From a virus: a stretch of DNA of 49,012 bases. The stretch lies in the IMG/VR virus record IMGVR_UViG_3300005832_000020, positions 1 through 49,012 of that record, one strand, 5' to 3'. Under the pieces are notes generated by a model, which was not told the DNA's origin, made no database searches, and saw nothing but the letters and a program-made list of their open reading frames with translations. This document shows positions 1,940-48,877 of this stretch, piece after piece. The first letter of the stretch is position 1, and the number at the start of each line of letters is the position of its first letter. A program made the position numbers and the translations under genes.

Positions 1940-1990
1940 AAACCCTCAACCGTTTCGTGGTATGTAACGGTTGAGGGTTTCTTTTTTTCT
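1940..1990 (+). terminator. Rho-independent terminator. The stem contains copy 1 (1943-1977) of the 35-bp quasi-palindrome family.
   Basis: aaaccctcaaccgtt (1940-1954) pairs with aacggttgagggttt (1966-1980) and is followed by cttttttt. Confidence 0.8.
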
Positions 1991-2033
1991 TATCTTTTTA
2001 AACAACCCCCCCCAGTTCAAAAAGGAGACTCCC

Positions 2034-2249
2034 ATGAGCGCCTACGTCTATCCCAATTTCAAAACAAAAAAATCTCTAAAAGAAGCAGTCAAAAGAGGTG
2101 ATTCCCTAATCGTAAAAGAGCAGACTCCTTTTGGAGAGCAGCTCATCGAGAACGGAGTTGCCTTTTTAGAAGGACCGCACTTTCCCTCTCCCCACAGTTG
2201 GTACGCAAAGGCCTTCTTAAAAGAGGGAAAAATCATTAAACTTTCTTAA
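2034..2249 (+). CDS. Hypothetical protein (71 aa)
   Basis: aaaaggagactccc lies immediately before ATG 2034, an in-frame internal start of ORF 1971-2249. Confidence 0.75.
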   Translation: MSAYVYPNFKTKKSLKEAVKRGDSLIVKEQTPFGEQLIENGVAFLEGPHFPSPHSWYAKAFLKEGKIIKLS

Positions 2250-2265
2250 CCAAAAAGGAAAAGAG

Positions 2266-2517
2266 ATGAAAGCGAGAGGACCGTCTCACACCATCACTAC
2301 CAACGACAAACTTGTTTTCCGTATCTGGGACACAGAAGCCAAAAAGTTCTATACCCAAAGAAAGAGACAGAAGAAAGAGTTCTACCAAGACCCTTTCCTT
2401 GTAGAAGTTCACAAGAGATACAAAATTTCCACCACAGAGGCGGTAAAGTATATATACCTTACCAAAGGTTTAGGACTCAAAGAAAGTTTAGCTTTCCTAA
2501 ACTCCCTGCGGTATTAA
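2266..2517 (+). CDS. Hypothetical basic protein (83 aa) whose C-terminus resembles the GLGLKEA helix of the ribosomal L7/L12 C-terminal domain
   Basis: aaaaaggaaaagag precedes ATG 2266. The C-terminal AVKYIYLTKGLGLKESLAFLNSL compares with L12 AIKvVReiTGLGLKEAKdLV. Confidence 0.7.
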   Translation: MKARGPSHTITTNDKLVFRIWDTEAKKFYTQRKRQKKEFYQDPFLVEVHKRYKISTTEAVKYIYLTKGLGLKESLAFLNSLRY

Positions 2518-2522
2518 CCAAT

Positions 2523-2557
2523 CCCTCAATCGGTTCATGGCGTGTACCGATTGAGGG
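2523..2557 (+). repeat. 35-bp quasi-palindrome family, copy 2 (ccctcaatcggttcatggcgtgtaccgattgaggg)
   Basis: Perfect 12-bp arms ccctcaatcggt/accgattgaggg (14 bp with flanking at/at, 2521-2534 and 2546-2559). Intergenic, directly after stop 2517. Aligns without gaps to the eight other copies. Confidence 0.8.
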
Positions 2558-2603
2558 ATTACCCTTTCCTCAAATTTATTTCCCCGGCGAGAAACAAAAA
2601 CCG

Positions 2604-2632
2604 TTGACACCAATATTAATATGGTGTACCAT
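2604..2632 (+). promoter_or_regulatory. Candidate sigma70-type promoter: TTGACA, 17-nt spacer, TACCAT
   Basis: ttgaca at 2604-2609, 17-nt spacer, taccat at 2627-2632. It lies about 40 nt upstream of ATG 2673 and downstream of a hairpin. Confidence 0.35.
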
Positions 2633-2672
2633 TACCCCCATAATCACCAATAACCCCAAACAGGAGGCTCCC

Positions 2673-2981
2673 ATGAACAAAGACTACGAAGAAACACAGA
2701 TCTCTGATCCCACAAAAGAGATCAAAGAATCCCTTGAACAGGCTCTCGTTCAACTGGATCGCGACCCAGCGCCGGACACCCTAATTCTAATCCTCGGCTC
2801 CTCGGTAAAGGATGAGCCGGAGTTTCGGAAAGCAGAAGGTTGCATGATCGGCCAAAATCCAAAGGTAGTTGCAGCCCTCGGAGAGGTTTTTATGAAAAAC
2901 CCTCTCATTTTGCTCCAGATCTTGGAGTATGTTGGGTCCACTCCTCTCGAACAAAAAGGAGGCAACAATGGATTACACTGA
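2673..2981 (+). CDS. Hypothetical acidic protein (102 aa)
   Basis: caggaggctccc precedes ATG 2673, an in-frame internal start of ORF 2604-2981. Confidence 0.75.
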   Translation: MNKDYEETQISDPTKEIKESLEQALVQLDRDPAPDTLILILGSSVKDEPEFRKAEGCMIGQNPKVVAALGEVFMKNPLILLQILEYVGSTPLEQKGGNNGLH

Positions 2982-3309: not shown

Positions 3310-3331
3310 TACCCAAGAAAGGAGGTCCAAA

Positions 3332-3926: not shown

Positions 3927-4970
3927 ATGTATCCTAAAACTCTCGAACAAATTCTCGACCTTGGCCCACCCACAATCCTTGACAATTCCATGCGAGTTAC
4001 TGCATGCGACTGCTGGCTCAAGCATTCATTCGAGCGCCGTGGGTATACCTATTCCTCAAAACCCCAGTATTTCACTTTCGGCTCTGCTTGGGGCAATGCT
4101 CTCAACATCTGGTACTCTCCAGAATATTCTTCCCTCCCTCCTCAAGACCGTACCACCCGTGCGCTCGAAGTAGCCCATACCACCTTTTCCGACAATCCTC
4201 CTCTACCAGAGTTCCCTCCTGATCCTATTAACAATTTCCAGAACTTAAAAAACAAGTTCTCCGATTACGTTTCCAACTACCCCACCGAACCTTGGGAAGT
4301 TATAACCCCCGAACTCGGTTGGATTTACCCTTTCGAGCTCCGTATAAAATACTCCCTTGCCGGTGCCCTCGATGGTTACATCCGATGGTCTCCTTACGGG
4401 TACCTCGAGCTCGAAAACAAAACCACTGGAATGTATCTTTCTGATTACTTCTTGGCCACCTACCGTTATAGCAGCCAAATAACCGGCTATTCTTGGTACG
4501 GTCACAAGATCCACGGCCCAGAGCACGCAGGAACTCTCATAAACGTAATAACCAAGAAACCTCCAACCAAAACTGGAAAGAGTCCCCAGTTCGCCCGGCT
4601 AATCGAAACCCGTACTCCCCAAGAATACCAACGTTTCGAGAAAGACTGGCTCCACTTTATCCTTTCCATGGAACAAGTTTACGCAAGCGGTCACTTTCCC
4701 CAAACCACCAACCCTATAAACTGTGTCGGTGGAATAGGCCGTTCTCCGTGCCTGTTCAAAAACCTTTGTGCTTCGGGGTTAGATCTCAATAAAATCAACC
4801 CCTTAAACTACCCAAACATCACGATTAGAAAGGAAAGATTCGAACCCTGGTTCCGTTCTGGTTCCGAAGAACGGGATATCCCAACCTCAATCACTACACA
4901 CCGTGAACCGGTTAAGCATTTCTATCACCGTCCTAACCGGATTGGTGGTATCAAGATGAAAAGGAGATAA
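3927..4970 (+). CDS. PD-(D/E)XK (RecB/Cas4-like) exonuclease with a probable 4-Cys cluster
   Basis: The motifs GALDGYI ... YLELENKTTG fit the D...ExK nuclease core. One N-terminal Cys region (TACDCW) plus the C-terminal NCVGGIGRSPCLFKNLC resemble the Cas4/AddB Fe-S arrangement. RBS agagaggctccca. Confidence 0.55.
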   Translation: MYPKTLEQILDLGPPTILDNSMRVTACDCWLKHSFERRGYTYSSKPQYFTFGSAWGNALNIWYSPEYSSLPPQDRTTRALEVAHTTFSDNPPLPEFPPDPINNFQNLKNKFSDYVSNYPTEPWEVITPELGWIYPFELRIKYSLAGALDGYIRWSPYGYLELENKTTGMYLSDYFLATYRYSSQITGYSWYGHKIHGPEHAGTLINVITKKPPTKTGKSPQFARLIETRTPQEYQRFEKDWLHFILSMEQVYASGHFPQTTNPINCVGGIGRSPCLFKNLCASGLDLNKINPLNYPNITIRKERFEPWFRSGSEERDIPTSITTHREPVKHFYHRPNRIGGIKMKRR

Positions 4971-6835: not shown

Positions 6836-6870
6836 CCCTAAACCGTTACACATAATGAACCAATCGAGAA
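6836..6870 (+). repeat. 35-bp quasi-palindrome family, copy 3 (ccctaaaccgttacacataatgaaccaatcgagaa)
   Basis: Intergenic, 32 nt upstream of ATG 6902. Aligns without gaps to the family consensus. Confidence 0.7.
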
Positions 6871-8046: not shown

Positions 8047-8229
8047 ATGGATAGAAATTACAAATTCTCCATGTCCAAGGATTTATTCGAGGCCTTTTAC
8101 CGCCTATTCCCTGGACTCGGTGAACGAAGAAGGTTTTTAATCGACCAAATAACCCTTGCCATAACAAAAGCGGAGAAGAAAAAAGATTTCAACAGAGAAA
8201 TCTTCGACGCTTACGAGGAAGGAGAGTAA
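8047..8229 (+). CDS. Small protein (60 aa), possibly a ribbon-helix-helix DNA-binding protein
   Basis: aaaaaggagtccag precedes ATG 8047. The N-terminal YKFSMSKDLFEAFYRL...RRRFLIDQITLAI fits a beta-strand/helix/helix RHH pattern. Confidence 0.5.
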   Translation: MDRNYKFSMSKDLFEAFYRLFPGLGERRRFLIDQITLAITKAEKKKDFNREIFDAYEEGE

Positions 8230-8230
8230 G

Positions 8231-8430: not shown

Positions 8431-8706
8431 ATGAAAAATCTCATCCGGATAATCGGCAAAGCCCCAAGTGAACTAACCCCAGAAGAATGGCTTGAAAAGC
8501 TCCAGGGTGAAAGAAGAAGAGTTCAAGATGCCCTTCTAGCTTTCACCCAAGGAACGTCGACTTCTTTCAAGAAAACAACAAAAGCAACCAGGGAGAAGAA
8601 GAAAGAACTTTCTCTCAAACAACAGTTAGCTTTAATCGAATCCTACGGGTTATCCGTAGAAGCGTTGAAAGAATTTGCCAAGAGGAGGGCCAATGGAGAA
8701 TCCTAA
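8431..8706 (+). CDS. Hypothetical protein (91 aa)
   Basis: agaggagagaccc precedes ATG 8431, an in-frame internal start of ORF 8413-8706. Confidence 0.65.
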   Translation: MKNLIRIIGKAPSELTPEEWLEKLQGERRRVQDALLAFTQGTSTSFKKTTKATREKKKELSLKQQLALIESYGLSVEALKEFAKRRANGES

Positions 8707-10309
8707 ATACGACAAAGTTTACAAAATCAATCCCGAGAAGGTAAGCTGCGGAACGAGGATTCGACAAGAGTTCGAGAGAAAAGGAATGGAAGAACTCGTA
8801 GCTTCAATCCAGCAAACTGGCCAACACACTCCTGGGGTGTGCATGCTCACTCCAGAAGGCGATCTTCGGCTGGTCGCTGGTGAAAGAAGGTTACGAGCTT
8901 GTCAAACCCTTGGAGTTGACTATTCCTACGTTCTCGAACCTTTCGACGAGGGAAAGCTCAAGATCATCGAAATTACCGAGAACCTCCACCGCCGGGCTTA
9001 CACCTGGCAAGAAGAGGTCCAAGCCAAAGCCAACCTCCACTCTTACATGCAAAGCCAGCACGGAGCGGCAGTTTCTGGCCAGCGAGGCGGTTGGGGAATA
9101 GCTCATACTGCCGCCAAACTCGGCCAGGCCATCTCCACACTCAATGAAGATGTGGAGTTGGCCCAGTGGGCCGAGCAGATACCAGAAATATCAAGTGCCC
9201 GGAACAAAACAGATGCAAAGAAGATTGTTCAACGAATAAAGACTCAACTAAACCGAAAAGAACAGTTGGAAGAAGCTTTAGCCAGTTCGGATAACCCTCT
9301 CTTAAGTAGCTTAAGCGCTTCTCTCCAAGAACGATATGAAACAGCTGTTCAGGAACACGAGTTTTCTCCCGGTCAAGAGGGAGAGAAAAGGCCAAAGCAA
9401 GAGGCAAAAGCGGAACCTTCTCTCGAACAACTCAAGCTCGCCCAGTTGGTCTTCTTCGACAAGAAGTGTATTTGCTCATCCTTCGAGGATTATTACCCCA
9501 ACTTACCTAAAGACAACTTTGACATGGTATTCTTTGACCCTCCCTGGGGACAGGATTATTCCACCCAATCCCCAGCAAGTCAAACAAAATTTGACGATTC
9601 TCAAGAACAATTTTTAACCAAGCTACCTCAATGGTTAGAAATGCTTTACTCGGTAATGAGTCCTAACTCCGTTATCTACATGTTCTTCGGAATAGTTGAC
9701 CACGGTTTTGCCTACCAGTCCCTCGAAAGAGCAGGTTTTGAAACAAATTGGATGCCTCTTATCTGGCACAAAAGAGGAGCTCATCGAACACGTAATCCAG
9801 AAACCTGGCGCGGTCGATCTTACGAGCCCATAGCCTACGCTTATAAAGGTAAGAAATCCTTGGTCTTAAGAGGCGCTCCAGACTACATCGAAACAAGTGC
9901 CCCAACCTCTCGCATCAAGAAAGACCACCCAGCGGCTAAACACCCAGGAATTTACCGTCAAATCCTTCTCGACCATTCATTACCGGGAGATAAAATCCTC
10001 GACCCGATGGCCGGGTCAGGAATGTTAGGTGTGGCTTGTGAAAGCATTTGTAGATCTAAACCCCTTGACTGGCTAATGATCGAACAACACGAAGCTTTTA
10101 GAAATCTCCAAATATTCAATCTCCACGAAGGTTATGATTCAATCATCCAAGCTCCAGATGAAACCGAACTCTCCCCCGAACAAGCCATCGAAGTCATCGG
10201 AGCGGTAGATTACAAAACCCTCACCCCAGGTACAAAAGCCTGGACTTACTTCTGGAATAATAATCCAGATAAACAAGACGAGATGCTTGAATGGAGGAAA
10301 AAACAATGA
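8693..10309 (+). CDS. ParB-like N-terminal domain fused to a beta-class N6/N4 DNA methyltransferase
   Basis: The N-terminus has LVAGERRLRAC (ParB/Srx GERR box). The C-terminal half has motif IV MVFFDPPWG before HPAAKHP and motif I ILDPMAGSGMLGVAC. RBS agaggaggg. Confidence 0.7.
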   Translation: MENPKYDKVYKINPEKVSCGTRIRQEFERKGMEELVASIQQTGQHTPGVCMLTPEGDLRLVAGERRLRACQTLGVDYSYVLEPFDEGKLKIIEITENLHRRAYTWQEEVQAKANLHSYMQSQHGAAVSGQRGGWGIAHTAAKLGQAISTLNEDVELAQWAEQIPEISSARNKTDAKKIVQRIKTQLNRKEQLEEALASSDNPLLSSLSASLQERYETAVQEHEFSPGQEGEKRPKQEAKAEPSLEQLKLAQLVFFDKKCICSSFEDYYPNLPKDNFDMVFFDPPWGQDYSTQSPASQTKFDDSQEQFLTKLPQWLEMLYSVMSPNSVIYMFFGIVDHGFAYQSLERAGFETNWMPLIWHKRGAHRTRNPETWRGRSYEPIAYAYKGKKSLVLRGAPDYIETSAPTSRIKKDHPAAKHPGIYRQILLDHSLPGDKILDPMAGSGMLGVACESICRSKPLDWLMIEQHEAFRNLQIFNLHEGYDSIIQAPDETELSPEQAIEVIGAVDYKTLTPGTKAWTYFWNNNPDKQDEMLEWRKKQ

Positions 10310-13082: not shown

Positions 13083-13249
13083 AACCTTTTGAGGAAACAG
13101 AAGAACAAAAGTGGGAACGTTGTAAAAACTCTTCACCTTCTTGTGAAGACCTTGACTGGTGTATATTCACTGGATTTATCCAAAGATGCTCCATCCACAC
13201 CTGCATCCTTTGGCACTTTCGCACCTGGGAAGATACACGTAAGCCCTAA
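13079..13249 (+). CDS. Small Cys-rich hypothetical protein (56 aa; ...KWERCKNSSPSCEDLDWCIF...QRCSIHTCILW...), below the ORF-track cutoff
   Basis: ATG 13079 forms an ATGA overlap with the polymerase stop, and gaagga lies upstream. I prefer it over the overlapping non-ATG ORF 13089-13286. Confidence 0.4.
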   Translation: MKPFEETEEQKWERCKNSSPSCEDLDWCIFTGFIQRCSIHTCILWHFRTWEDTRKP

Positions 13250-13278
13250 ACCGTTACATACCATGAACCGCTTGAGGG
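13244..13278 (+). repeat. 35-bp quasi-palindrome family, copy 4 (ccctaaaccgttacataccatgaaccgcttgaggg)
   Basis: Ends 4 nt before ATG 13283 and is followed by tttt. Confidence 0.75.
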
Positions 13279-18700: not shown

Positions 18701-18973
18701 TGCTTGAACTTTCTCCTCTGGACTCAGAGCATTGAACTTTTCCCTCTCACTCGGCAAAGCATATCGTGCTCCTGGTACGAATCCAAGTCCAACCTTAATA
18801 ACATCATACACCCAAGGAGCATCTTCCATTACCTCTCTTTCTTTACCAAACGGCAGAATCGCTTCACGGGCTGAAGGGGTTGAGGATAACGGTTTGACCT
18901 CAGAGAAAGCGTCAAAGGGTTTTTCTTCTATTGTACTACCTGGAGTAATATCATCTAATGGATTGTAGGGCAT
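15779..18973 (-). CDS. Large virion-associated protein (1064 aa). Its position matches a podovirus internal-core/ejection protein; a tape-measure-like role is not excluded.
   Basis: Long uninterrupted ORF, last gene of the late arm, following three other unassignable proteins. I recognised no catalytic motif. Confidence 0.3.
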   Translation of the reverse strand: MPYNPLDDITPGSTIEEKPFDAFSEVKPLSSTPSAREAILPFGKEREVMEDAPWVYDVIKVGLGFVPGARYALPSEREKFNALSPEEKVQAVGVEALGAALWAGTSMTAIKAGQKAAKWAFGQKAVKKILPIEDAVRGIGELAPELKWSPFNYAERLNKKLKSMGFAKEEADAVSRVMLGESEDLLKNAYISRKYLGKDPTGAFKEATRWVKGQEYVGPWRGPQLKLALSRDTLHKLSSETLQSKHYQKLFRTALGKEVYGGKYPVEYAEVALKAGAKKFIGEDLGKAMTFDQATPELVTNVVLDMLRDKRAVWNLTAIGRGRVFPVNFTPSRVIFGTGEETLGTYQNIYKPGKAAIGEANSYTFDRVLLWQKKLEELQLGKVKFDKFGGFSFSANFGAADQKAAYDVLLKTDEIMRPVYRGATEEVMLEKAAEVTRLVNTLPKGGASRLLVEAWNQYSDVLYGEFVSHKLRQVFVNKGLTAWGHNSLDYMLRELNPKVANLFATSAGKSHADKVLGLKEILSAARKRLVSTGDAHPWFTASGDTLKRQLSKLEKELTLGGANSRGTFLPYLENYTARLAERGAQYAQEWKTSLMRGPQAFFTKAKKIEPKRGAPVDFATMIEARLRAQGKEMFVYPVMDDIVKYAEKLPPAWREYTEHWMARILHMPSTTDYKVAEWLTKGIGGIEKRLGGTGIWDADRVMQLGQTVNDFTYMGALGFKPFSAVRNLFQPLLTVPADLGGLKGLGHLVAGAKKAMNPKTREYIRSLGAITDYAPEAAITPHALPGMKEIGGFALPSTDRVRDFAMWMFRGSDRWNRYVSGGAAMNKWETALGKMGKTTLDSPEEIKRFIGLLGLKKRNPWVATEIEDNLRKSLLEDNLRRGLLDEAKKIWVSDVIADTQYLYGAADAPIVTGKAGIIGKTGMIFQTWWMNYGTLIEKWMRTGEVPADKIGVTITGMFSAAIAEQAMEQVWDRKRAMKSVGLGVFPSTVDQYMIPPSWTPIYHAVGALLSVQEPEKAVGRLKQILDSGAILVPGGLQMKQMWRGAEEEGFKGFSKSILGIKPGS

Positions 18974-27107: not shown

Positions 27108-27142
27108 TCCTCGATCGATTCATGAGCTGAACCGATCGAGGT
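27108..27142 (+). repeat. 35-bp quasi-palindrome family, copy 9 (tcctcgatcgattcatgagctgaaccgatcgaggt)
   Basis: Arms cctcgatcg/cgatcgagg. It lies between the capsid stop (27151) and the next start (27091). The T-tract lies on the + side only. Confidence 0.7.
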
Positions 27143-31763: not shown

Positions 31764-31798
31764 CTCTCGATCATTACACACCGTGTAACGGTTTAGGT
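31764..31798 (-). repeat. 35-bp quasi-palindrome family, copy 5, the only copy in inverted orientation (- strand: acctaaaccgttacacggtgtgtaatgatcgagag)
   Basis: Intergenic, between 31815-32165 and 31487-31750. Confidence 0.7.
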
Positions 31799-31814
31799 TT
31801 TAGTGTAATTTCTT

Positions 31815-32165: not shown

Positions 32166-32166
32166 G

Positions 32167-32379
32167 TTACTCTACAGGCGGTGGTTTCCCGTTAGTTCTA
32201 CTAAACAGTTTCACAAACGGATTCTTAATAGCTTCGATTAATCTATCATCCCACTCGCTTTTTGTAAGTTTGGCTATCGCTAATAGTATAGCAAAAACCG
32301 ACGAAAGTGTAACTGCGTTATTCTTTACAAATTCCAAAACAATTCCATCACATCCAGTTTTTACAATCCACCAGTCCAT
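32167..32379 (-). CDS. Small membrane protein (70 aa); holin candidate
   Basis: One hydrophobic helix LSSVFAILLAIA is followed by KLTKSEWDDRLIEAI, which resembles the (T/S)xxDD(K/R)(I/L) motif of many small phage membrane proteins. TAATG junction. Confidence 0.35.
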   Translation of the reverse strand: MDWWIVKTGCDGIVLEFVKNNAVTLSSVFAILLAIAKLTKSEWDDRLIEAIKNPFVKLFSRTNGKPPPVE

Positions 32380-32651
32380 TAAAATATGTCTCCTAATAAC
32401 TCTAAACCTTTTGCAAATATATCAATTCGTGATAAAGCTGTTAAAACAATTAGCAAAATGATAACGCTGATTATTTTATAAGAAGTTCTTGACCAAAAAG
32501 ACCTGACCTTTTTAACCACCACATGATCTTGAGCATGTTCAAACGGTGTTGACCCGCTTCCTTTAAGGTCTACTGCATAAGGACAACAGGCATTCTTGAG
32601 AGCCTCTTGAATGACCTTTTTCAGATCTTCGTCAGTTGTTTTAATCTCCAT
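32379..32651 (-). CDS. Small C-terminally membrane-anchored protein (90 aa); candidate holin, antiholin or spanin-like protein
   Basis: The ATG 32651 TAATG junction. The C-terminal TM segment is YKIISVIILLIVLTAL. Confidence 0.3.
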   Translation of the reverse strand: MEIKTTDEDLKKVIQEALKNACCPYAVDLKGSGSTPFEHAQDHVVVKKVRSFWSRTSYKIISVIILLIVLTALSRIDIFAKGLELLGDIF

Positions 32652-38300: not shown

Positions 38301-40631
38301 GGGGTTGTTACCTACTGCAAGTTGAGTTGCAACGGCAACCGAACCAGCAATGGAACAATGCCACTGGTCATCTACTGTAGAATAAATACATGAAAGTAAA
38401 TCACCGCTTTGTGCAGTATAGTTTACACCACCCCCTTCTAACCCCTCACCCTCAAAAACAAATGTAGTGTAATCATCGTTTACGATTACAAACAGAAGTT
38501 GTCCGTTTAGTGGTGATCCATCAAAGTCAGTTATAACACCAGGATCTCCTGATGTATTTTGTGTTATATGAATCATACCACCAGATACATCAGGGGTAGA
38601 ATCTCCTGCTGTAATCAAATTCGGAGCATCGTACAATAATGGAACAGCAGCAGTGGTATCGTCTAAAACACTTGTAATTGTTCCACCCGCAGCAAGTTCG
38701 TCGAGAGTTTCCAAAGCAGCTTGAAGAGTTGTGTCTCCTGCTCCCAAGTGACCGTCGAAATTGGTTACATCAGTTGGAACATCTACTGCCGCAACCTGTC
38801 CAGCACCTGCACCCCAATCTATGTGGGTGTCTTTAATAAGATCTGTAGCGGTTATCGCTGTAGTAAAAGTTGGGCTGTCTATTGTTGGGGCTTGATTAAA
38901 TACCGCTAATGGAGAACCAGTTGCAGAACCCGTTTCATTACTCAAGACTCCGTAGAGTTGAGCAGAAGTTGTTGCAGCAAAAACACTCAGGTTATCATTA
39001 ACATTAGGAACAGCCACTCCACTCTCAGTCACCACAGTTGGATTCAAGGTTCCTGTGATCCCCAAAATTGTAGTATCGTCTGCAACTGGCCCAACCACTA
39101 CACTATGAGTGTTCCCAGCATCGTAAAAAGTTTGAGTTCCTGCATGGTGAACAACAATATCTCCCTTATCGCCAGTATTCCCAGCATTTATAACACCTGT
39201 TGTAATAGTGTTACCAGCAGAACTAGCCGAAGCAAAATTTATAGTCCCTACAGCAGAATATCCATTAGCCGCTGTGATAGTATCATGATTAGAATTCCAC
39301 GTGTCTCCTGCTGCTACATAGGCAGAGTATGCCGTACCAGAACTTGTAATAATAAAGGTATTTGCTATAGTTACTACCGTAGCGTTATTACCCGTACTAT
39401 CTAACCGCACGCCTGTTGTAGCAAAACTTGAAGAAGCTTGACTTGCTACAATAAACCTGTTCCTACCAATAGTAGCAGATGTCGCAGTTCCGTACAACCA
39501 AAGACCTGTAGCAGATCCACTTCCAGTTGTAGAAACTTCTATAATATTATCATTTATTATAAAACTTCCTGTACCACCACTAACGGTTTCAAAGCCGACA
39601 ACTTCATCATTAGTATCATTACAAGTTACATAAATTTCGTTGTTAAATAAAAGTAAACTGGCCGTTCCTTCATGAGACACAGCTGATTGCGTTCTTGCAG
39701 TTTCTGTCGTACCTCCAGTAATTGAATAAATTATACGAGTTTGATAAACCCTCATAGATCCGCCAGTAACATTTAAAGCTTTCATTAAATAGTCACCAGC
39801 ACTTTTTGTTATTGTAATATTACATGTTATTATAGCACTATCACTTCCACTTGACACTATAGCATTTGAATTAGCCCCCAAGGTTCCATAATTTACAACT
39901 ATACCAATATCTTGTATAGTACCTTTTGCAGACGGAAACGTAACCGCAGTTCCTGAAGTTGGAGTAATTCTTGTGGTAGTTCTACCACTACCCAATATAT
40001 CCACATAGTTCTTCATCACTACGTTTTCAGCATAGTCACCAGGAGCTACTTTTATAAGATACCTTTTTGAAGTCGTAGCATCCGTGATTGCGGCCAAAGC
40101 TCCTGAAATCGAAGTGTAATCAGCACCTGACTTCGCTACTGTTACCTCTTGGGCGTAGGGCTTCCTAACCCCCGTTAAATTGGCACCAGAGCCTGTCGGC
40201 GCTAAAACATCAGTCCCAATAACCAATCCAAGGGTAGTCCTTTGAGCAGCAGCGTTGGCATCGTCTAAAATAGCCTCTCCCGCAGCTGTAACCGTAACTG
40301 CTGAGGTGGCTCCGCTTGAAATTTTTACAAGACCATTATAATCCTTAACATTAGCCTCTAAGCCGCCAACCTCATGATCCAGAAAATCATTATCAATAGC
40401 ATCTCCATTGATTGCATCGGGATCTATATTAGCAGTAAAGGCTTTAGGAAGGTTCAGTAAAGTTACCTTCCTGGTCCCAGGAGAAACACTAGGATTATTG
40501 GTAGTTCCAACAATATCATCACTAGTTGGATCAGTATCTGGCGTAAACCCAGAAGGTGCAGTAGCCTGTGACCAAGAAACACCCGAAAAAAGAAACAAAA
40601 TAGCTAACGTTAAAAATAAAACCTTTTTCAT
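35388..40631 (-). CDS. Giant fibre/adhesin-like protein (1747 aa) with an N-terminal signal peptide
   Basis: gggagaat precedes ATG 40631. The N-terminus is MKKVLFLTLAILFLFSGVSWSQA|TAPS. The fibre-type motif AGEAILDDANAAAQRTTLGL is present. The composition is T/G/A/S/D/N-rich, with internal repeats such as TIAADTTISGT twice. Confidence 0.55.
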   Translation of the reverse strand: MKKVLFLTLAILFLFSGVSWSQATAPSGFTPDTDPTSDDIVGTTNNPSVSPGTRKVTLLNLPKAFTANIDPDAINGDAIDNDFLDHEVGGLEANVKDYNGLVKISSGATSAVTVTAAGEAILDDANAAAQRTTLGLVIGTDVLAPTGSGANLTGVRKPYAQEVTVAKSGADYTSISGALAAITDATTSKRYLIKVAPGDYAENVVMKNYVDILGSGRTTTRITPTSGTAVTFPSAKGTIQDIGIVVNYGTLGANSNAIVSSGSDSAIITCNITITKSAGDYLMKALNVTGGSMRVYQTRIIYSITGGTTETARTQSAVSHEGTASLLLFNNEIYVTCNDTNDEVVGFETVSGGTGSFIINDNIIEVSTTGSGSATGLWLYGTATSATIGRNRFIVASQASSSFATTGVRLDSTGNNATVVTIANTFIITSSGTAYSAYVAAGDTWNSNHDTITAANGYSAVGTINFASASSAGNTITTGVINAGNTGDKGDIVVHHAGTQTFYDAGNTHSVVVGPVADDTTILGITGTLNPTVVTESGVAVPNVNDNLSVFAATTSAQLYGVLSNETGSATGSPLAVFNQAPTIDSPTFTTAITATDLIKDTHIDWGAGAGQVAAVDVPTDVTNFDGHLGAGDTTLQAALETLDELAAGGTITSVLDDTTAAVPLLYDAPNLITAGDSTPDVSGGMIHITQNTSGDPGVITDFDGSPLNGQLLFVIVNDDYTTFVFEGEGLEGGGVNYTAQSGDLLSCIYSTVDDQWHCSIAGSVAVATQLAVGNNPDTPENNVLTFVADADADGGNVAIESSPNLYYNPFSETLFSTTFEGALTGEATTAATVTGTAQSAITSVGTLTTLTVDDITINGNTISSAGASTLAITPYTDQTITLDGTITIDAGVVAGATSITSTEFYGGGANLTALDGEQITDDTIDDDSIDFADVTCADITTTDCGAITSTGVITATTSVATPLLDIGTDDDMDYGSALVDDHTFTSDGGTVVLDGSITSSGNMFIGMDVDANDYYLLFDGNFSNLTMQWWEDEERLTFTSLNTDTDTEAFSFEFGTADTIGVSTSTDIATFDFNAIDITTTGDVTATNLVGAGASITALAGTNISSGTVPASALNTTQDWSALTITMPTHTTGPITVTDAYLAYAASASTKYMYLGAYDSDGPTATPLLEFLSATEPYMYLGGNTTNSWQFDKAGNAIVLGTATFRVPQNTACTGYTAEGSLCWDTDENILYVGNNDVAAIPIGGTTDAFTVKVDSDAAAGYIGTSSSNGVLQTASPLTYTDMGNYILLDVTDIGDADVVNDLTITSTKKISNILTTEQLRLGYDATNYATFTVADDGALTIATVDVDAAEGDINLAPDGFVGIKKAIPTVELDVTGDILASGTITSTGDVAVGDDVLLADGAVVGITGNEVITFNAAGSINVTGATMDVDGAFTASTIAADTTISGTAITGTAEANFTNNAAAVTFGAVGTDADVVLAFDAVGNQGSLTYMNGEDRFDFDNDVDVIGDLTAATIAADTTISGTTITASTQLELSHASENTLTASSGVLSIEGAALGKVAGQAWSGVHDFGGATTFEIWNSTSDMALGAEGQIGLQSTDDQLVFHGGSAGEIQGEAAKSLLEHKMWSFDPKTVCDGAVDRLFLMTIGDDAPEGIIITEWKVSFEADPTTEVDLDLKYADAFIGVANAAVIDVLDTSAGVSSEDTNANINSGAAVANGKVLYLEFGTAYTETTHQVIFEIWYYAEED

Positions 40632-40639
40632 ATTCTCCC

Positions 40640-40843
40640 TCATTCTGTTAACCAACAATCTGCGGTTCCCTCTATAAGCCAACAATCTGCGGTACCTTCC
40701 AATAACCAGGTATCTCCGGATGGAGTTGCCACTCCTTTACCAGTTGAACCTACACCAAAAAGTAAAAATTCATCTTTACTTGCCCAAGAGTAAACAGCCA
40801 TTCCCAAGGCTAATAATATTACAAGACTGATAATCTTTTTCAT
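40640..40843 (-). CDS. Small secreted peptide (67 aa) ending in the tandem nonapeptide EGTADCWL(I/T)
   Basis: The N-terminus is MKKIISLVILLALGMAVYSWA|SKDE. The C-terminal LLEGTADCWLIEGTADCWLTE is encoded by a 27-bp tandem repeat. Confidence 0.45.
   Translation of the reverse strand: MKKIISLVILLALGMAVYSWASKDEFLLFGVGSTGKGVATPSGDTWLLEGTADCWLIEGTADCWLTE
40652..40693. repeat. 27-bp-period tandem repeat (2 units; core ccaacaatctgcggt at 40652-40666 and 40679-40693)
   Basis: Read directly. It lies in frame within 40640-40843. Confidence 0.85.
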
Positions 40844-40844
40844 C

Positions 40845-43800
40845 TTAGTACCATGATAATCCCGTTCCAGTTGATGGTGAAACCCCCGTTCCGGTTGCTA
40901 TTGACCCAGAGGTTTTACTTGCAATTTGAATTGCAATAGATCCTAAATCAACTCCAACCGGAGTTAAATCCGTGTCTATATCATTTCCAGCAGCATCTTG
41001 GATCACAACTCCGTTTAAAGAAAAAGCAGACACAGACGCAGCCTGAAGATCTGAAGTCGCCATATTCTCCGCTGTAATTAATTGGAAGCAAATAGAGGTT
41101 CCAGAAACAGACGATCCGTAAGCATTCACATTCCCAGTTACTGCCCCCGTATTTACAAGCAACGTCATTGTCGGCGCACTACCAGATATAATAGATACAG
41201 GTTCATCATAAGTAATACATATAGGGATTTCTGCATAAACCGTGCTAAAGTTACCGGTATTCGATCCAGACCACGACGAAGCCACGGGCGATGTTGTGTC
41301 CGTAGCAATGTTGAACACTTCCATTTTCGTGATTGCGGTGTAATAATTGGAATCAGAATAGCCACCCGGCAACGTAGTTGTTAGCGTATTGTCTACAGCA
41401 GTAGAATCTTTTATCCACGCTATCTGTGAACCGTAATTGCCGTTTCTTAGATTGGTATTGCTATTCCACCAGCCATGAACCAAGTACGTCTTTGTTTCAT
41501 CTATTGTGTAAATGATTTCATCCGTAACAGTTGTTTGATTAGCTGTCACAGTGGTCCCGTTACTTCCACTATCAAACGTAATTCTTGTTGGGGTGGTAGT
41601 ACAAGTACTGGTAGCACTTTGTTCACAGATAGACATTCCACTTATCACCATGTTAGCTGTAAGTGGGGCTTGAAGCGTAAACCTTACCTTAGTACCTGAT
41701 GTAGTTATTGCAGCAGCGGGCAAGATCATCCTCTTGTTTCTATCTGCAACATTAATCGGTTCAACACTTGAGGTTAATGCTATACCCGTCCAACTTTCTG
41801 ACCAACCACCCCCGCCTGCCGTTACGGTAATTTCAACCGGCCCATCTTGGCATTGACCACCATCGTTATCTGTAACCGTTAGGGTTACATTAAACACACC
41901 CACTGTAGCCATTGTTACAGAAGCATTATCTTCATTTGTCAGATTAGACCCACCCCCGTCCAAATCCCAAAGGTAACTTGCAATGGTTCCATCTGAATCT
42001 GCCGCAGTAGAATTAAAATCAAGCGTATCGTTTTGGGAAATAGTTTGTGCTGTAGGAGAATCTATCGAACAAGTAGGCAGTTCATTAGGAGGATTGACTT
42101 GGACCTCAAGTCTATCTAACAACACAATATTAGACGACCTTGTGTAACCCGTTGGAGTAGTATATAAAGACTCATCGTTTAGAGTAGCAGCAGACTTATA
42201 AATACTTGAATTTGCAGCAGATGTAAGCCTTCTGATATATGCTGGCCCATCGTTGAACCACAGGTGGACCAGATAGTCTTTGGTTTCATCTATCGCAAAT
42301 TCTAACGAATCAGAATACTGAGAAGCTGATGTTGATAAAGTAACCTGTGATAATCCTCCAAATTTAACTTCCGTTGGAGTAGTTGTGCAATTCCAGTAAG
42401 AATCAACCAAAGGGTCTGCTGAAGTTGTTGCCCTTTCGCAAATCGAAACGTGATCTATGACAGATGCATTTCCGGTGTTCCCAGTAAACCTTAACCTACA
42501 GGAATCTCCGCTAATAGAAATATCCGCAGCTTTTAAAACCATTCTTCTATTATGATCAGCAGTAGCATTGGAAATATCTGTATCCAATGCAACAGACCAT
42601 GAAGTTTGCCAGTTTGTTGTAGTTCCTGTTTCGTCTAAAAACGCTCCTATTTCAGGCGGATCGCTTTTTGTCCCAGTAACTACCGCACTGGGCCATACCG
42701 ATGAGTTTTTAAGATCAACCGTATACCCACCAATAGCGACACCCGCTCCAATCAATGGGGATTCTGCATTCCCAGGCCATAATTGGAAATCAGCGGTGCT
42801 GTTATATTGAGGATCTGCTGTAAGAGAGTTTGTAGAACCAGACCACGAACCAAACGTTGCCGTAGTATATGTAGTTCCTGTCCAATAAACCCTATTGGCC
42901 GTAGCTGAATTGTAAAGAAGGTTGTTGCTGTATGTTCCAGAACCTACACTATCGTAAATTGTATAACCAGTTGCCTTTGTTAGATAAATCGAATTATTTT
43001 TAACTTCAAATCCAGTAGAACCAGCTAATCTATATATTCCGTATGTTACATTGCCAGTTGTATCTAAAATAGAATTATTATAAATTAACGTTCCAGAACT
43101 TCCAGTACTATCATAAATATTTATAAAACCAGGATAAGTAGGCGCGCCACCACAATCTTTACCTATATTATTATAAAACTCTGCGTCTACAGTATAAGTT
43201 CCTGCTCTAAACATACTTCTAACTTGGTAGAATTTATTTCTATACGTTTTTACTCTAGCTGTTCCGTATGTATTAATCCTACCAAGCCTAACACCAACCT
43301 CAAGCCCCAATCCATAGAAATAGTTATCATAAACATTTATATCAGTTGATGTATATCCATTACCCCCATTAATACCAATCCCATAGTGACGCCCAGAAGA
43401 CCCTCCCTCTCCGTATCCTTCATCCATGTGAATCGTATTGTCATAAACATTTACATTGGAAGAATGTTTAATATCTATACTTTGTTCACCAGCATTCCCA
43501 AGGTCGTTATTATAAATACTTAAATCAGAAGTAGAATCTTCTGTTTGAATACAATCTCCATTAACGTTATTAATTGTATTGTCATGGATGAGGTAGCTTA
43601 CCGTTGCGCCCCTTCCAGTTCCAGTAAAAATTCCTATGTTATCAATACCATTAAGTGTGGGCGTTGTGCTCACACCCAAATTGCTAATCGTGCAGTTCTT
43701 GATCTCCACTTCACCAGTTACAGATTGACCAATTACAATACCATTATGGCCTTCATACTGTGCACCTTGCCCTGATAACTCCCCATCAATATCAACCCCA

Positions 43801-44267
43801 TCTATCATGGGAGATATTTGAGATCCTCCGATATAAACCAACATGGACTTTGAAACAGCAAACTCCTGGCCCACACAAGAAATATCTTTAAGAAGAAGAT
43901 CTTCAAAATCCTGTGTAATGTAAATGCATCTATTTGTATCTCCGTCTAATTCTGGTTTGCCATCTATTGTAACATCTTTAGCATCGAATGAATCCGCTGT
44001 AACACTACCCCTAACAGTTAAATTTGTTACTCCGTCCGATGTTCCACCGAGAGTTAATGTAGCATCATTAAATGAATCCCCTGCTCTTATAATAACTATA
44101 TCACTATTCCCAAAAGAATATGAGTTTATTTTCCCAATAGTTTCCCATGCTGTGGCAGGGGATGTACCAGCCGCTGCGTCAGATCCACCGTTCTTAACAT
44201 AATACGTTGCTGCAAAAGACGGAGAAGCACAGGTTAAAATAAAAAATATTAGGAGATATTTTTTCAT
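40845..44267 (-). CDS. Secreted parallel beta-helix protein (1140 aa) with a PKD domain and a C-terminal Ig-like module; candidate depolymerase or tailspike
   Basis: The N-terminus is MKKYLLIFFILTCASPSFA|ATYYVKNGGSDAAAGTS. PbH1 repeats IHDNTINN, IYNNDLGN, VYDNTIH, VYDNYFYG, FYNNIGKD, IYNNSILD and VKNNSIYL. PKD motif DSDGTIASYLWDLDGGG...VFNVTLTVTDNDGG. Confidence 0.6.
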   Translation of the reverse strand: MKKYLLIFFILTCASPSFAATYYVKNGGSDAAAGTSPATAWETIGKINSYSFGNSDIVIIRAGDSFNDATLTLGGTSDGVTNLTVRGSVTADSFDAKDVTIDGKPELDGDTNRCIYITQDFEDLLLKDISCVGQEFAVSKSMLVYIGGSQISPMIDGVDIDGELSGQGAQYEGHNGIVIGQSVTGEVEIKNCTISNLGVSTTPTLNGIDNIGIFTGTGRGATVSYLIHDNTINNVNGDCIQTEDSTSDLSIYNNDLGNAGEQSIDIKHSSNVNVYDNTIHMDEGYGEGGSSGRHYGIGINGGNGYTSTDINVYDNYFYGLGLEVGVRLGRINTYGTARVKTYRNKFYQVRSMFRAGTYTVDAEFYNNIGKDCGGAPTYPGFINIYDSTGSSGTLIYNNSILDTTGNVTYGIYRLAGSTGFEVKNNSIYLTKATGYTIYDSVGSGTYSNNLLYNSATANRVYWTGTTYTTATFGSWSGSTNSLTADPQYNSTADFQLWPGNAESPLIGAGVAIGGYTVDLKNSSVWPSAVVTGTKSDPPEIGAFLDETGTTTNWQTSWSVALDTDISNATADHNRRMVLKAADISISGDSCRLRFTGNTGNASVIDHVSICERATTSADPLVDSYWNCTTTPTEVKFGGLSQVTLSTSASQYSDSLEFAIDETKDYLVHLWFNDGPAYIRRLTSAANSSIYKSAATLNDESLYTTPTGYTRSSNIVLLDRLEVQVNPPNELPTCSIDSPTAQTISQNDTLDFNSTAADSDGTIASYLWDLDGGGSNLTNEDNASVTMATVGVFNVTLTVTDNDGGQCQDGPVEITVTAGGGGWSESWTGIALTSSVEPINVADRNKRMILPAAAITTSGTKVRFTLQAPLTANMVISGMSICEQSATSTCTTTPTRITFDSGSNGTTVTANQTTVTDEIIYTIDETKTYLVHGWWNSNTNLRNGNYGSQIAWIKDSTAVDNTLTTTLPGGYSDSNYYTAITKMEVFNIATDTTSPVASSWSGSNTGNFSTVYAEIPICITYDEPVSIISGSAPTMTLLVNTGAVTGNVNAYGSSVSGTSICFQLITAENMATSDLQAASVSAFSLNGVVIQDAAGNDIDTDLTPVGVDLGSIAIQIASKTSGSIATGTGVSPSTGTGLSWY

Positions 44268-44269
44268 AT

Positions 44270-44304
44270 ACCTAAACCGTTACACGTCATGAAGCGATTG
44301 AGAT
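44270..44304 (+). repeat. 35-bp quasi-palindrome family, copy 6 (acctaaaccgttacacgtcatgaagcgattgagat)
   Basis: Intergenic, between 44312-44767 and ATG 44267. Confidence 0.7.
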
Positions 44305-46646: not shown

Positions 46647-47685
46647 ATTGAGCCCACGAAAAGGTTTCTTCAGTTCCCACCCAATTATGTATCATTGAAT
46701 CTATTCCTCTTCGATAGGCTTCTTCAAGAGCATTACTGAGATCTTCTGTTTCTTTCATACCAAAAGTTCCTGCTCTGTAACCAGCAGTATTCAAATAAGG
46801 AGGATCTGCATAAATAAAGTCGCCTTTTTCTGCTCCTTTTATTGTTTCTTCCCAAGGTCGTACTGCAATATCAGCTTTATGAGTCTTTAAGACTTCAGAA
46901 TGTTCGTAAATTCTATCAACTAAACCTTTTGGGGTTATGTATTTCCCTTGTGGCGAACCATAGCGAGGAGCAAAACCAGGTTCTGTAGCTAAAGTATAAG
47001 AACCAACAAAAATATCCGCAGCTGCTTGTTTAGCAGGATTATCAGAATAATATCCTTGCTTGTTTTTCTTTGCCACGTCTATTGTATGTTTCCAAAATTC
47101 CTCTGTTGTTGGATAAGAATAACCCTTTGTCAATTTCTCGAGGTGCTTAACAACCGCATCTGGATTATCCATAACTTGCTTGTGAATGTTAACAGTCCGA
47201 GGATTTACATCCCCCAAAACCATCTTTTCAAATTTCTTGGTTTTACCAACACTCCGAGCAACCTTACCAGTTCCTAAAAACGGTTCGTAATAGGTTTTTC
47301 CTTTAGGAATAGTTTTTGCTACTTTTTTAGCTAACTGCCCTTTCTGCCCCATTAGTCGAAATAGATTAGCTGGGCCTGTTCCGCCTCCTGGGGCTCCGCC
47401 TACAAGGAGCCTAGTACTTAAATCAAGCAAATCTTGTTCTGTTAGTTTCTCTGGATTAACCAAACCTTTCTTTGCAGTTGCTATAAGTGTGCCAGGTCTG
47501 TCGAGCAACCACAATTTTAACAACCGGGCAACTCCAGTAGCTGTGCTTTCACCTTCTTGTAATCTTAAATCCCTCTCTGGATTCTCTATTCCTTTGAGTA
47601 ATTCTCGATAAACATCCTGAAGATCCTTACCAACGATCCCAGTTTTTACTTGTGGTACATTAGCTCTGATCTGGGACATATCCAT
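46585..47685 (-). CDS. Dam-like (D12/alpha-class) N6-adenine DNA methyltransferase with an N-terminal extension of about 130 aa
   Basis: Motif I GQKGQLAKKVAKTIPKGKTYYEPFLGTGKVA precedes motif IV FIYADPPYLN. The ORF overlaps both terminase-subunit genes. Confidence 0.65.
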   Translation of the reverse strand: MDMSQIRANVPQVKTGIVGKDLQDVYRELLKGIENPERDLRLQEGESTATGVARLLKLWLLDRPGTLIATAKKGLVNPEKLTEQDLLDLSTRLLVGGAPGGGTGPANLFRLMGQKGQLAKKVAKTIPKGKTYYEPFLGTGKVARSVGKTKKFEKMVLGDVNPRTVNIHKQVMDNPDAVVKHLEKLTKGYSYPTTEEFWKHTIDVAKKNKQGYYSDNPAKQAAADIFVGSYTLATEPGFAPRYGSPQGKYITPKGLVDRIYEHSEVLKTHKADIAVRPWEETIKGAEKGDFIYADPPYLNTAGYRAGTFGMKETEDLSNALEEAYRRGIDSMIHNWVGTEETFSWAQFEGKTGFHGGKELEWRAFHK

Positions 47686-48193
47686 CTTCGTCTTCGATCA
47701 TGTTGAGTACTTCCAAACTCAACTCTTCATCGGTCATTTTGTTAACATTGATCTTGCCGATGTTGTATTGATTGTTAGTAACTTCCCTGACCGGATTGTT
47801 TTTTGGAATAGCGCGGTCGAGAACCTCAAACGCAGCCGCCTGTCTAATCTTCCTTTCCCTCGGGTCGGTTGGGGACAGATCAAGATCTTCGTCAATCACT
47901 TCGAGGGCCCTTTGAGCCATGTTTAAAATATCTTGCCTCAACTCCGTTGCGGCCATTTCCGCCCCTCGTTCGAGGGAAGCCAAGTATTCGAGGAACGCAG
48001 GGGAACCAGTAATGTTGCTAATCTGAGTTGGAGTCATATTGAAAAGAATGGAAAGGTCAGTAGGCCGCGTTCCGGAAACAACAGCCCTTGCCATAGCTCT
48101 GTGCCACGGACGGAGTTCAATCAACCGTCCTTCGATTGCTCCGTGCGGTTGGTAGATGTTTTGATATGTAAGTCCTTTATTCAACTTGCCCAT
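47660..48193 (-). CDS. Putative terminase small subunit / HTH DNA-binding protein (177 aa)
   Basis: It lies upstream of TerL in the same operon. It has an HTH-like TRPTDLSILFNMTPTQISNITG and an acidic C-terminus. Confidence 0.4.
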   Translation of the reverse strand: MGKLNKGLTYQNIYQPHGAIEGRLIELRPWHRAMARAVVSGTRPTDLSILFNMTPTQISNITGSPAFLEYLASLERGAEMAATELRQDILNMAQRALEVIDEDLDLSPTDPRERKIRQAAAFEVLDRAIPKNNPVREVTNNQYNIGKINVNKMTDEELSLEVLNMIEDEDGYVPDQS

Positions 48194-48217
48194 TTTGTGT
48201 TCTTCTTTCTAAGAAAT

Positions 48218-48286
48218 CCCCACCCCACAATCAGCCTTTTGAGGCTCCCGATCAAAAGGTTCACGTCTGACTTGGGGCGGGGGGTG
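48218..48286 (-). other. Compound stem-loop of about 69 nt (GC-rich outer stem, middle stem, 8-bp inner hairpin) in the late-operon leader
   Basis: In the - sense, CCCCGCCCCA pairs with UGGGGUGGGG (one G-U), AGUCAG pairs with CUGAUU, and CCUUUUGA pairs with UCAAAAGG. Confidence 0.45.
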
Positions 48287-48340
48287 GAGTGATTAGAAGC
48301 GGTGCGCACCGAGTTCTCCTTCCTCTCTTGGGACTCCTAA

Positions 48341-48493
48341 TCACGATTTCTTCTTTCTCTTCTTCTTCATATGTTTAAACATTTCAACTTCTTTGAGCCG
48401 CTTATCCGCTTCCTTTTCCGTCTTATACGGTCCTCCGAGCTTTCTTCCTTTTTCCGAAGTTACCACGTATCCCTTAGAAGTTTTCTTTTTCAC
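48341..48493 (-). CDS. Small lysine-rich protein (50 aa; VKKKTSKGYVVTSEKGRKLGGPYKTEKEADKRLKEVEMFKHMKKKRKKKS), below the ORF-track cutoff
   Basis: GTG 48493 is preceded by gaaaggaaaattt, and the frame is open to TGA 48343-48341. It would be the first gene of the late arm. The sequence looks protein-like. Confidence 0.4.
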   Translation of the reverse strand: MKKKTSKGYVVTSEKGRKLGGPYKTEKEADKRLKEVEMFKHMKKKRKKKS

Positions 48494-48796
48494 CCAAATT
48501 TTCCTTTCTCGAAATAAAGACGTACCTGCACTTAACCGCCACCATTATACCACGTTCACGATTAAAAGTCAACCTACGATCCCCCCACGCCACCCCATTC
48601 ACGATGATCCATTCCCACTTTCTTAAAAATACCTCCTACCGAGAATTCCCTAAAATCGAAAAAGTCGTATGGGTAATTTTTGAGTTTTCCCCCCGGTCCC
48701 GGAATTCTCAAATCCCCCCAGGGCCTCTTCGGTGAATACGATTCAGAATTTGAATCCCTCTCTCACCTCTGAACCATACCCCAGGTTTTGCTCTTT

Positions 48797-48831
48797 CCCT
48801 CAACCGTTTCACGCCATGTATCGGTTGAGGT
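48797..48831 (+). repeat. 35-bp quasi-palindrome family, copy 7 (ccctcaaccgtttcacgccatgtatcggttgaggt)
   Basis: It lies in the terminal noncoding region, 62 nt before the terminal repeat. Confidence 0.75.
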
Positions 48832-48842
48832 TCGTTCGTTCG

Positions 48843-48877
48843 TTCTCAACCGCTTCACGGGATGAACCTATTGAGAA
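48843..48877 (+). repeat. 35-bp quasi-palindrome family, copy 8 (ttctcaaccgcttcacgggatgaacctattgagaa)
   Basis: It lies 11 nt after copy 7 and 15 nt before the terminal repeat. Confidence 0.7.

Follow-up and report, generated by a model that had tools for sequence, protein, structure and literature searches.

Dispersed 35-bp quasi-palindromes at gene junctions of an uncultured phage and its relatives as candidate sites for a symmetric DNA-binding protein

The window analyzed here is the complete 49,012-bp genome of an uncultured phage (IMG/VR record IMGVR_UViG_3300005832_000020), bounded by an exact 120-bp direct terminal repeat at both ends. It carries about 11 copies of a 35-bp quasi-palindrome. 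The feature is real, strongly non-random, and shared across a phage family. Our explanation, to which we give roughly an even chance, is that the elements are operator-like sites on duplex DNA for a lineage-specific symmetric protein, a few of the copies acting as hairpins as well. The two inverted half-sites of each element, for which the consensus in the window is CCCTCAACCGTTTCA, would be bound by a protein peculiar to the lineage, either as a symmetric dimer or as a dimer of dimers. The binder would be encoded by the phage and co-evolved with its sites, and their occupancy might organize gene expression or another genome-wide process, separating gene modules as a roadblock or insulator, or providing a place for a spreading protein to load.

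A first-pass annotation had listed nine 35-nt copies, one of them (31764) inverted, which align without gaps and share 14 invariant columns; all nine were found at the positions given, and the invariant columns were exactly those claimed. When the genome was scanned with the degenerate consensus, allowing up to three mismatches, only these nine sites and a tenth at 4884 were matched, against 0 of 100 dinucleotide shuffles. With a position weight matrix scored leave-one-out, the copies reached 24-44 bits, whereas the maximum in 200 Markov-2 random genomes was 16.8 bits. The annotation had named equally good matches in shuffled sequence among the findings that would refute the family; no equally good match arose by chance. 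A borderline eleventh copy (18852-18886) scored 14.6 bits, and about 0.01 such sites are expected per random genome. The additional copy suggested at 48648-48684 gave approximately -40 bits without gaps and is therefore not a copy in register. Conserved coding sequence is avoided: essentially non-coding 35-nt windows make up about 3% of the genome, yet nine of the 11 copies are located there. The description of the family as purely intergenic holds for these nine and fails for 4884 and 18852, which are inside open reading frames (ORFs). The exonuclease ORF (3927-4970) continues for 30 codons beyond the end of six homologues, through copy 4884. Since this extension is missing from the homologues, the spot was ancestrally intergenic; the extension arose either from a lost stop codon or from a sequence error.

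Read in the sense direction, each internal copy is preceded by a stop codon at 5-16 nt and followed by the next Shine-Dalgarno (SD) sequence and start codon. Sites occupy almost every sizeable intergenic gap of the two convergent gene arms (plus arm, about 0.7-15.7 kb; minus arm, 48.5-15.8 kb), and the fit is often exact: stop codon, palindrome, and a right end that is itself the next SD sequence. A further cluster is found beside the terminal repeats, upstream of the arm promoter. The two copies there, 48797 and 48843, had been described as a tandem pair just inside the terminal repeat. They are in tandem, but the pair ends 15 nt before the 120-bp repeat rather than within it. These copies are 225-300 bp upstream of the minus-arm promoter (48572-48544, minus strand), which is the sole strong sigma-70-like site in 47600-49012 and lies about 44 nt upstream of the gene at 48341-48493; they are probably not transcribed. 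The layout in the relative L048 matches, with an element at 2529 and a promoter at 2606-2640. A sigma-70 promoter within the element itself was considered and rejected, because the -10/-35 geometry does not fit.

The position of most copies between a stop codon and the next SD sequence, in the sense orientation, could also be explained at the RNA level. In this alternative, which we regard as unlikely, the elements are intercistronic hairpins serving as attenuators or terminators, 3' stabilizers, processing sites, or translational operators by the SD sequence, and an RNA-binding protein or nuclease might recognize them. For comparison, 72 elements of seven classes were oriented to the sense strand by their flanking genes. 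The arm mismatches comprised 20 G·U, 26 A·C, and 42 others, so that sense-strand G·U is not in excess and no wobble preference is seen. Deviations from the class consensus were compensated in six cases and uncompensated in 114 among the relatives, and in nine against 47 in the window, where the modest excess of compensation stems mainly from 2523 and 27108. Pairing cells in the 11 window copies amounted to 75.8%, compared with 75.9% after partners were shuffled within columns, and 297 of 500 shuffles were at least as high as the observed value. Since pairing equals that of the column shuffles and deviations are mostly uncompensated, the palindromy reflects two consensus half-sites and not pairing. 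The compensatory or sense-strand wobble changes that would mark a structured RNA are thus not displayed, and no Rfam family matched the elements. In addition, the 5-bp center of one motif class, class A, can be A5 or T5 in the same genome, whichever the orientation; such flips are equivalent on duplex DNA and different in RNA, which counts for a DNA site.

The folds themselves point in the same direction. Their energies span -28 kcal/mol (2523) to -1 kcal/mol (6836) with stems of at most 16 bp; four copies fold at -10 kcal/mol or weaker, and 6836 and 44270 reach only -1 to -6 kcal/mol. Column 13/23 has a conserved mismatch, either T·T or A·A, in seven of the 11 copies, and the exact half CCTAAACCGTTACA is kept in four window copies despite a partner arm that does not pair with it. 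The preference of the annotation for a dimeric protein site over a plain terminator is supported by the lack of covariation and of a sense-strand G·U bias, by the mostly uncompensated deviations, by these weak folds, and by the two copies upstream of the only strong promoter of the arm. It should be mentioned that copy 1943 does have full terminator anatomy, a T-tract after a stem of -25.6 kcal/mol, as the annotation had stated. The T-tracts that it reported after several plus-arm copies reduce to this single one: a T-tract on the sense strand is lacking at the other ten, and Rho-independent termination is indicated at 1943 only. Accordingly, the proposal of bifunctional terminators stands for 1943, may extend to 27108 because the post-capsid position has a hairpin in nearly every relative, and fails for the remaining copies. 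We infer that 1943, and probably 27108, also act as RNA hairpins.

Elements of the same plan occur in uncultured relatives whose major capsid proteins are 52-64% identical to that of the window; these were found through a protein database and metagenome contigs. The sample comprised 80 capsid-centered loci (numbered with the prefix L), early arms obtained via polymerase homologues, and one complete IMG/VR genome of 43,845 bp (IMGVR_UViG_3300005613_000125, hereafter gA). Homologues of the major capsid protein, 52-66% identical, number in the hundreds in metagenome assemblies. No close cultured phage is known: megablast gave no match, and the nearest capsid matches in cultured phages are at most about 26% identical. 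Scans of IMG/VR by the single capsid protein and by the window motif gave no match. In the relatives, each element consists of an arm, a 5-bp center, and an arm, and the arm sequence is genome-specific. The left flank often contains the stop codon, and the right flank is rGAGr, which acts as the SD sequence. Seven arm classes were distinguished (the window; L001/L002/L032; L005/L091; L020; L021/L050; L035/L037; and L047/L048/L052/L090/L095/gA), and a common inner box is TYCR-N5-YGRA. In several classes, the arms are in turn short palindromes (AACGTT, AATATT, AACSGTT, TTCGAA, TTTAAA, TGAWTCA), which is a hint of a dimer of dimers.

The number of copies ranges from 1-3 per genome (L092, L093, L094) to at least 16. 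All 16 elements of gA are intergenic, and two of them are at junctions orthologous to those of window copies 6836, at the SSB-like gene, and 13244, at the primase gene. The latter corresponds to gA 31934, L090 12697, and L095 12637, the element preceding the primase gene in L090 and L095 too. The post-capsid position of copy 27108 has a hairpin or an element in most relatives, and in L052 several elements are found in the inter-arm region. Some junctions are conserved between genomes whose element sequences differ. Table 1 lists the individual copies and the arm types together with the other features discussed.

Table 1. Copies of the element, associated features of the window, and arm types of the relatives (W is A or T; ORF, open reading frame; SSB, single-stranded DNA-binding protein; HTH, helix-turn-helix)
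Feature	Position	Strand	Description
Copy 1	1943..1977	+	10 nt after upstream stop; folds at -25.6 kcal/mol; followed by TTTCTTTTTTTCTT; sole copy with terminator anatomy
Copy 2	2523..2557	+	5 nt after stop; no T-tract; promoter-like TTGACA-17-TACCAT next, at 2604
New copy	4884..4918	+	31.6 bits; starts right after the conserved exonuclease end, in a 30-aa ORF extension
Copy 3	6836..6870	+	Precedes SSB-like 170-aa gene; -1 kcal/mol on the sense strand; junction orthologous to gA element 23019
Copy 4	13244..13278	+	Right end GAGGG 4 nt before primase ATG, doubling as Shine-Dalgarno sequence
Borderline copy	18852..18886	-	14.6 bits; within 5' end of 1064-aa ORF
Copy 5	27108..27142	-	Between major capsid stop and Shine-Dalgarno sequence of next gene; well paired
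Copy 6	31764..31798	-	Inverted; 16 nt after stop, just before Shine-Dalgarno sequence and ATG of 95-aa gene upstream of portal
Copy 7	44270..44304	-	Ends 2 nt from ATG of 1140-aa protein; poor fold
Copy 8	48797..48831	.	In tandem with copy 9 (46 bp start to start); about 225 bp upstream of -35 box of minus-arm promoter
Copy 9	48843..48877	.	Ends 15 nt before right terminal repeat; upstream of promoter
Terminal repeat, left copy	1..120	.	Right copy 48893-49012
Sigma-70-like promoter	48544..48572	-	TTGACT-17-TATAAT, 11/12, extended TG; faces first minus-arm gene
Candidate binder 1	8675..10309	+	Noc/ParB-like N-domain (GERRLRA) and HTH fused to N6_N4 DNA methyltransferase; ParB_N and N6_N4_Mtase domains
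Candidate binder 2	8047..8229	+	60-aa protein with strand-helix-helix sequence pattern; conserved in 8/8 genomes
Arm ATTGATTCA-W5-TGAATCAAT			L007, L038, L047/L090, L048/gA, L052, L095 and others
Arm AATATTCA-W5-TGAATATT			L035/L037
Arm AACGTTCG-TTAAA-CGAACGAT			L021/L050
Arm TGTTCG-AAWTT-CGAACA			L001, L002, L032
Arm GGCGTCA-W5-TGACGCC			L005/L091
Arm AGCGTTA-AATTT-TAACGCT			L020

The distribution of the arm classes bears on the origin of the binder. The sites might belong to a host protein, a global regulator or nucleoid protein exploited by the phage, in which case the motif class would reflect the host; a host-encoded binder would count against the phage-encoded one proposed here. Identical class A arms are present in members distant in the capsid tree (L007, L009, and L073 compared with the L047/L048 clade), although the deep branches of this tree are poorly resolved, and also in L096, whose ParB-methyltransferase is only 21% identical. 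Furthermore, no phage gene specific to the elements was found. On the other hand, not one of 185,579 bacterial and archaeal species (one genome each) contains the window motif, class A arms outside the phage family occur as single matches only, with unrelated centers, multi-copy use is confined to this phage family, and no known host operator matches. A host protein therefore seems improbable as the binder.

A/T-rich centers favor cruciform extrusion, and the SSB, primase, polymerase, and portal genes are preceded by sites in positions that promoters occupy in T7-like phages. In addition, the encoded Sak4-like annealase, exonuclease, and SSB-like proteins could use homologies of 23-35 bp. Structure-forming DNA was thus considered in several forms: cruciforms or N4-type hairpin promoters, helicase-primase loading or origin sites, recombination linkers between co-infecting relatives, and mobile elements resembling repetitive extragenic palindromes (REP) or miniature inverted-repeat transposable elements (MITE). 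We regard these as very improbable. Profile searches of PHROGs, Pfam, and PDB revealed no RNA polymerase: the 630-aa protein, tried as a phage RNA polymerase, is the large terminase subunit (TerL), neither a polymerase motif nor a PDB match was obtained for the conserved 1064-aa core protein, and the 1765-aa protein has no family match, the latter two proteins being unassigned. At least 16 origins in 44 kb would be implausible, and the positions are conserved across genomes with different motifs. A 12.5-kb accessory block of the window (31800-44270) contains no copy, which argues against mobility, and no transposase was found.

For a phage-encoded binder, two candidates had been named in the annotation, and both genes are conserved in all eight genomes compared. 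The first, which we consider the best candidate by analogy with known ParB systems, is the Noc/ParB-like CTPase and helix-turn-helix (HTH) protein fused to a DNA methyltransferase. A profile built from the N-terminal half of this protein in seven genomes aligned to residues 2-222 of Noc (7NG0) with E = 7.6e-18, covering the CTPase fold and the HTH. The motif GERRL(R)A is invariant in the family, L091 gives an HTH_8 match, and the region of the recognition helix in the window reads GQAISTLNEDVEL. The replicon that carries the sites thus encodes a ParB-fold protein with a GxxRxxA NTP motif and an HTH. A single-sequence structure model of the ParB half was unusable (predicted local distance difference test score, pLDDT, 39). 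The second candidate, the 60-aa protein, had been called ribbon-helix-helix (RHH)-like. Its conservation was confirmed, and the fold was not: neither a PDB sequence search nor Foldseek gave a match, and the single-sequence model (pLDDT 69) shows a helix-helix arrangement with a disordered N-terminus. Pfam searches with 20 small window proteins recognized no regulator. Packaging sites had been suggested as well, a role that is unlikely since internal copies exist; a 177-aa HTH protein precedes TerL in all relatives, and a packaging site for this TerS-like protein was rejected on the same ground.

ParB-family proteins bind dispersed palindromes, namely parS, NBS, and KorB OB (PMC11790492). Fusions of a ParB-CTPase with a methyltransferase are frequent in phages yet uncharacterized (PMC12704722), and a 2026 report (PMC13229309) described ParB-like proteins that activate DNA-modifying enzymes of phages. 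If it behaved as the binders of parS, NBS, and KorB OB do, the ParB-methyltransferase would load at the palindromes and slide. The half-site GTT(T/A)CAC of the window resembles the half-site of parS. The latter is GTTTCAC. In a more specific form of the proposal, the palindromes would be parS-like loading sites, one every 4-6 kb or so, at which the protein forms an NTP-dependent clamp, followed either by processive methylation of the genome or by KorB-like silencing or insulation of gene modules at a distance. We hold this form to be distinctly doubtful. A direct role of the elements as targets of the methyltransferase was rejected, as GANTC is present in class A arms and not in those of other classes.

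Several observations weigh against the operator-like role or against the candidate binder. None of the tests made here connected a protein with the sites, the ParB-domain candidate included. In the eight genomes, the motif class follows the overall phylogeny, as does every protein, and covariation therefore singles out none of them. The ParB-methyltransferase and RHH-like genes are present even in genomes that have only 1-3 elements; when gene presence was compared with element load, no gene was confined to element-rich genomes, and the only seemingly element-specific families were coverage artifacts. The 5-bp centers and variable subsite distances differ from the abutting halves of canonical parS, and the centers in the window are G+C-rich and variable, whereas those of the relatives are W5. 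Upstream arms in the structural operons show a tendency to better conservation than downstream arms (42 against 60 deviations, p = 0.09), a bias that a symmetric dimer does not predict. The post-capsid junction has a hairpin in nearly all relatives; where the family element is used there, its flanks form longer complementary stems, for example in L001, L010, L012, and L063, and the stems of L011, L016, and L063 contain sense-strand G·U pairs. Together with the strict order of stop codon, element, and SD sequence, this hairpin fits a role at the RNA level for some copies at least. We read the hairpins and the arm bias as secondary uses and constraints at particular junctions.

The genes around the elements are those of an apparently lytic, podovirus-like phage. 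The plus arm contains the replication genes: the exonuclease, the Sak4-like annealase, the SSB-like protein, the ParB-methyltransferase, a family-A polymerase with a UDG domain, and the primase/helicase. In the minus arm are the genes for a TerS-like protein, a Dam-like methyltransferase, TerL, the portal, the major capsid protein, an adaptor, and the tail. The accessory block (31.8-44.3 kb) comprises genes of 569, 354, 1765, 67, and 1140 aa, which have no homologues in the sampled relatives. The N-terminus of the 1140-aa protein is a lipoprotein-like signal, MKKYLLIFFILTCAS. The first gene 3' of the minus-arm promoter (48341-48493, minus strand) encodes a very basic protein of 50 aa with 20 K/R, beginning MKKKTSKGYVVTSEKGRKLGGPYKTEKEADKRL, which is a possible nucleic-acid binder.

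Other repeats are present in the window. An exact 15-nt direct repeat, TTCACAATCCTGAAC, is found at 300-314 and 373-387 in the left-end control region; it is like the inner core of the element except for a 6-nt spacer, and a promoter-like TTCACA-17-TAAAAT overlaps with the first of the two copies. The control region at the right end contains, between copy 48797 and the promoter, the sequence GATTCAGAATTTGAATC (48740-48756), a palindrome of the class A type, GATTCA-N5-TGAATC, as in other members of the family. Two families of conserved start contexts were seen. AAAAGGAGACTCCCATGA occurs four times (1637, 2016, 2655, 5380) with a mini-palindrome, GGAGaCTCC, that spans the SD sequence, and GGAGGTAAAnnATGATTCTCGA occurs three times (5162, 5830, 15502) and codes for MIL(E/D). 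Nine copies of TTTATAATA are present, all on the minus strand (7514, 7625, 22341, 33328, 33400, 39555, 43076, 43169, 43508); three of these copies code for (I/F)YNN in the 1140-aa protein, which is of the beta-helix/PKD type.

Among the relatives, a second conserved structure follows the capsid gene at more than 20 loci. It consists of AGTATCC, a G+C-rich hairpin whose stem covaries between genomes, and GGGnAAACTATG(A)GGAG. Examples are L047 10270-10320, L048 11375-11420, L052, L024, L030, and L061; it is distinct from the palindromes and absent from the window. The boxes GTACAATATATTGTAC and GGTATAATATTTTGTAC are directly 5' of elements in the inter-arm control region (L052 790-930; L048 1696-1712 and 1797-1813), and these may be promoters or second operators. 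A tRNA-like sequence containing GGTTCGAATCCTGCC is located in an early-arm gap between genes of L092 (6047-6218) and L094 (6078-6372), in both adjoining the single GTTTAAA-T-TTTAAAC element. As for hosts, the capsid relatives L085 and L089 are on contigs binned into metagenome-assembled genomes of Pirellulales and Phycisphaeraceae, a weak hint of Planctomycetota; more distant capsid relatives are found in Methanosarcinales bins.

Few regulatory signals can be read directly from the sequence of an uncultured phage, and genome-specific dispersed repeats are one of them. Here, one architecture is common to a large phage family that is recorded only in metagenomes, many of them from sediment, groundwater, and saline-lake samples. 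The turnover of arms at fixed junctions provides a natural experiment in the co-evolution of a protein with its sites. Should the binder be the ParB-CTPase-methyltransferase, the elements would supply a first cis-site and mechanism for the phage fusions (PMC12704722), and clamping would extend long-range control of the clamp type from plasmids to phages. If the elements are merely the operators of an ordinary regulator, they would still be a useful annotation rule for the family.

The elements share features with several known systems. Like intrinsic terminators and T7-type RNase III sites, they are intergenic dyads after highly expressed genes, and copy 1943 has the corresponding anatomy; they differ in the conservation of sequence among copies, in the lack of a U-tract at ten of 11 copies, and in the lack of covariation. 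REP and MITE elements are a poor match, as host-genome matches are lacking, junctions are conserved across motif classes, and the accessory block is empty. The stoperators of Cluster A phages are closer in that many copies of one phage-specific site are placed in short intergenic gaps genome-wide. The phage protein that binds them blocks elongation, and it co-evolves with its sites (PMC9283540, PMC6550527). Stoperators, however, are asymmetric sites of 13-14 bp, recognized by a monomeric immunity repressor and oriented with transcription, whereas the sites here are palindromic, and neither a repressor nor an integrase was detected in the window.

Plasmid RK2 offers another parallel. Its KorB OB sites are about a dozen palindromes and fall into classes. 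As with these, about a dozen copies of one palindrome are spread over a replicon of 45-60 kb, some near promoters and some hundreds of base pairs or more away. The likeness extends to the encoding of a ParB-family CTPase and HTH protein by the same replicon (PMC11790492). It differs from ParB/parS in that the half-sites are 5 bp apart rather than abutting, a methyltransferase takes the place of the ParB dimerization domain, and binding is predicted; no ParA or KorA partner was seen in the window.

Among published elements, the nearest analogue is found in Cluster K mycobacteriophages, in the extended start-associated sequences (ESAS). These are inverted repeats just upstream of the SD-containing start-associated sequences (SAS) (Pope et al. 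2011, PMC3203893). Their consensus is specific to the subcluster, and they are kept at orthologous genes with the left repeat nearer to the consensus and show no support for RNA pairing; a DNA-binding protein was favored by their authors too, and their function was still unknown in 2025 (PMC3203893; PMC12699233). The elements described here are likewise imperfect inverted repeats upstream of the SD sequence and start codon at a subset of genes, with a lineage-specific consensus, orthologous junctions, and no RNA compensation. The differences are in detail and in distribution. ESAS arms are 17 bp with a spacer of 4-13 bp, whereas the arms here are 7-15 bp around a fixed 5-bp center; the sequences are unrelated to the 13-bp SAS (GGGATAGGAGCCC) and to the 17-bp repeat consensus, and no separate 13-bp SAS accompanies the elements. 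ESAS are confined to the non-structural half of temperate siphoviruses, whereas the elements here are found in both arms and cluster at the terminal repeats. The parallel between the two systems suggests a recurring solution in the organization of phage genomes.

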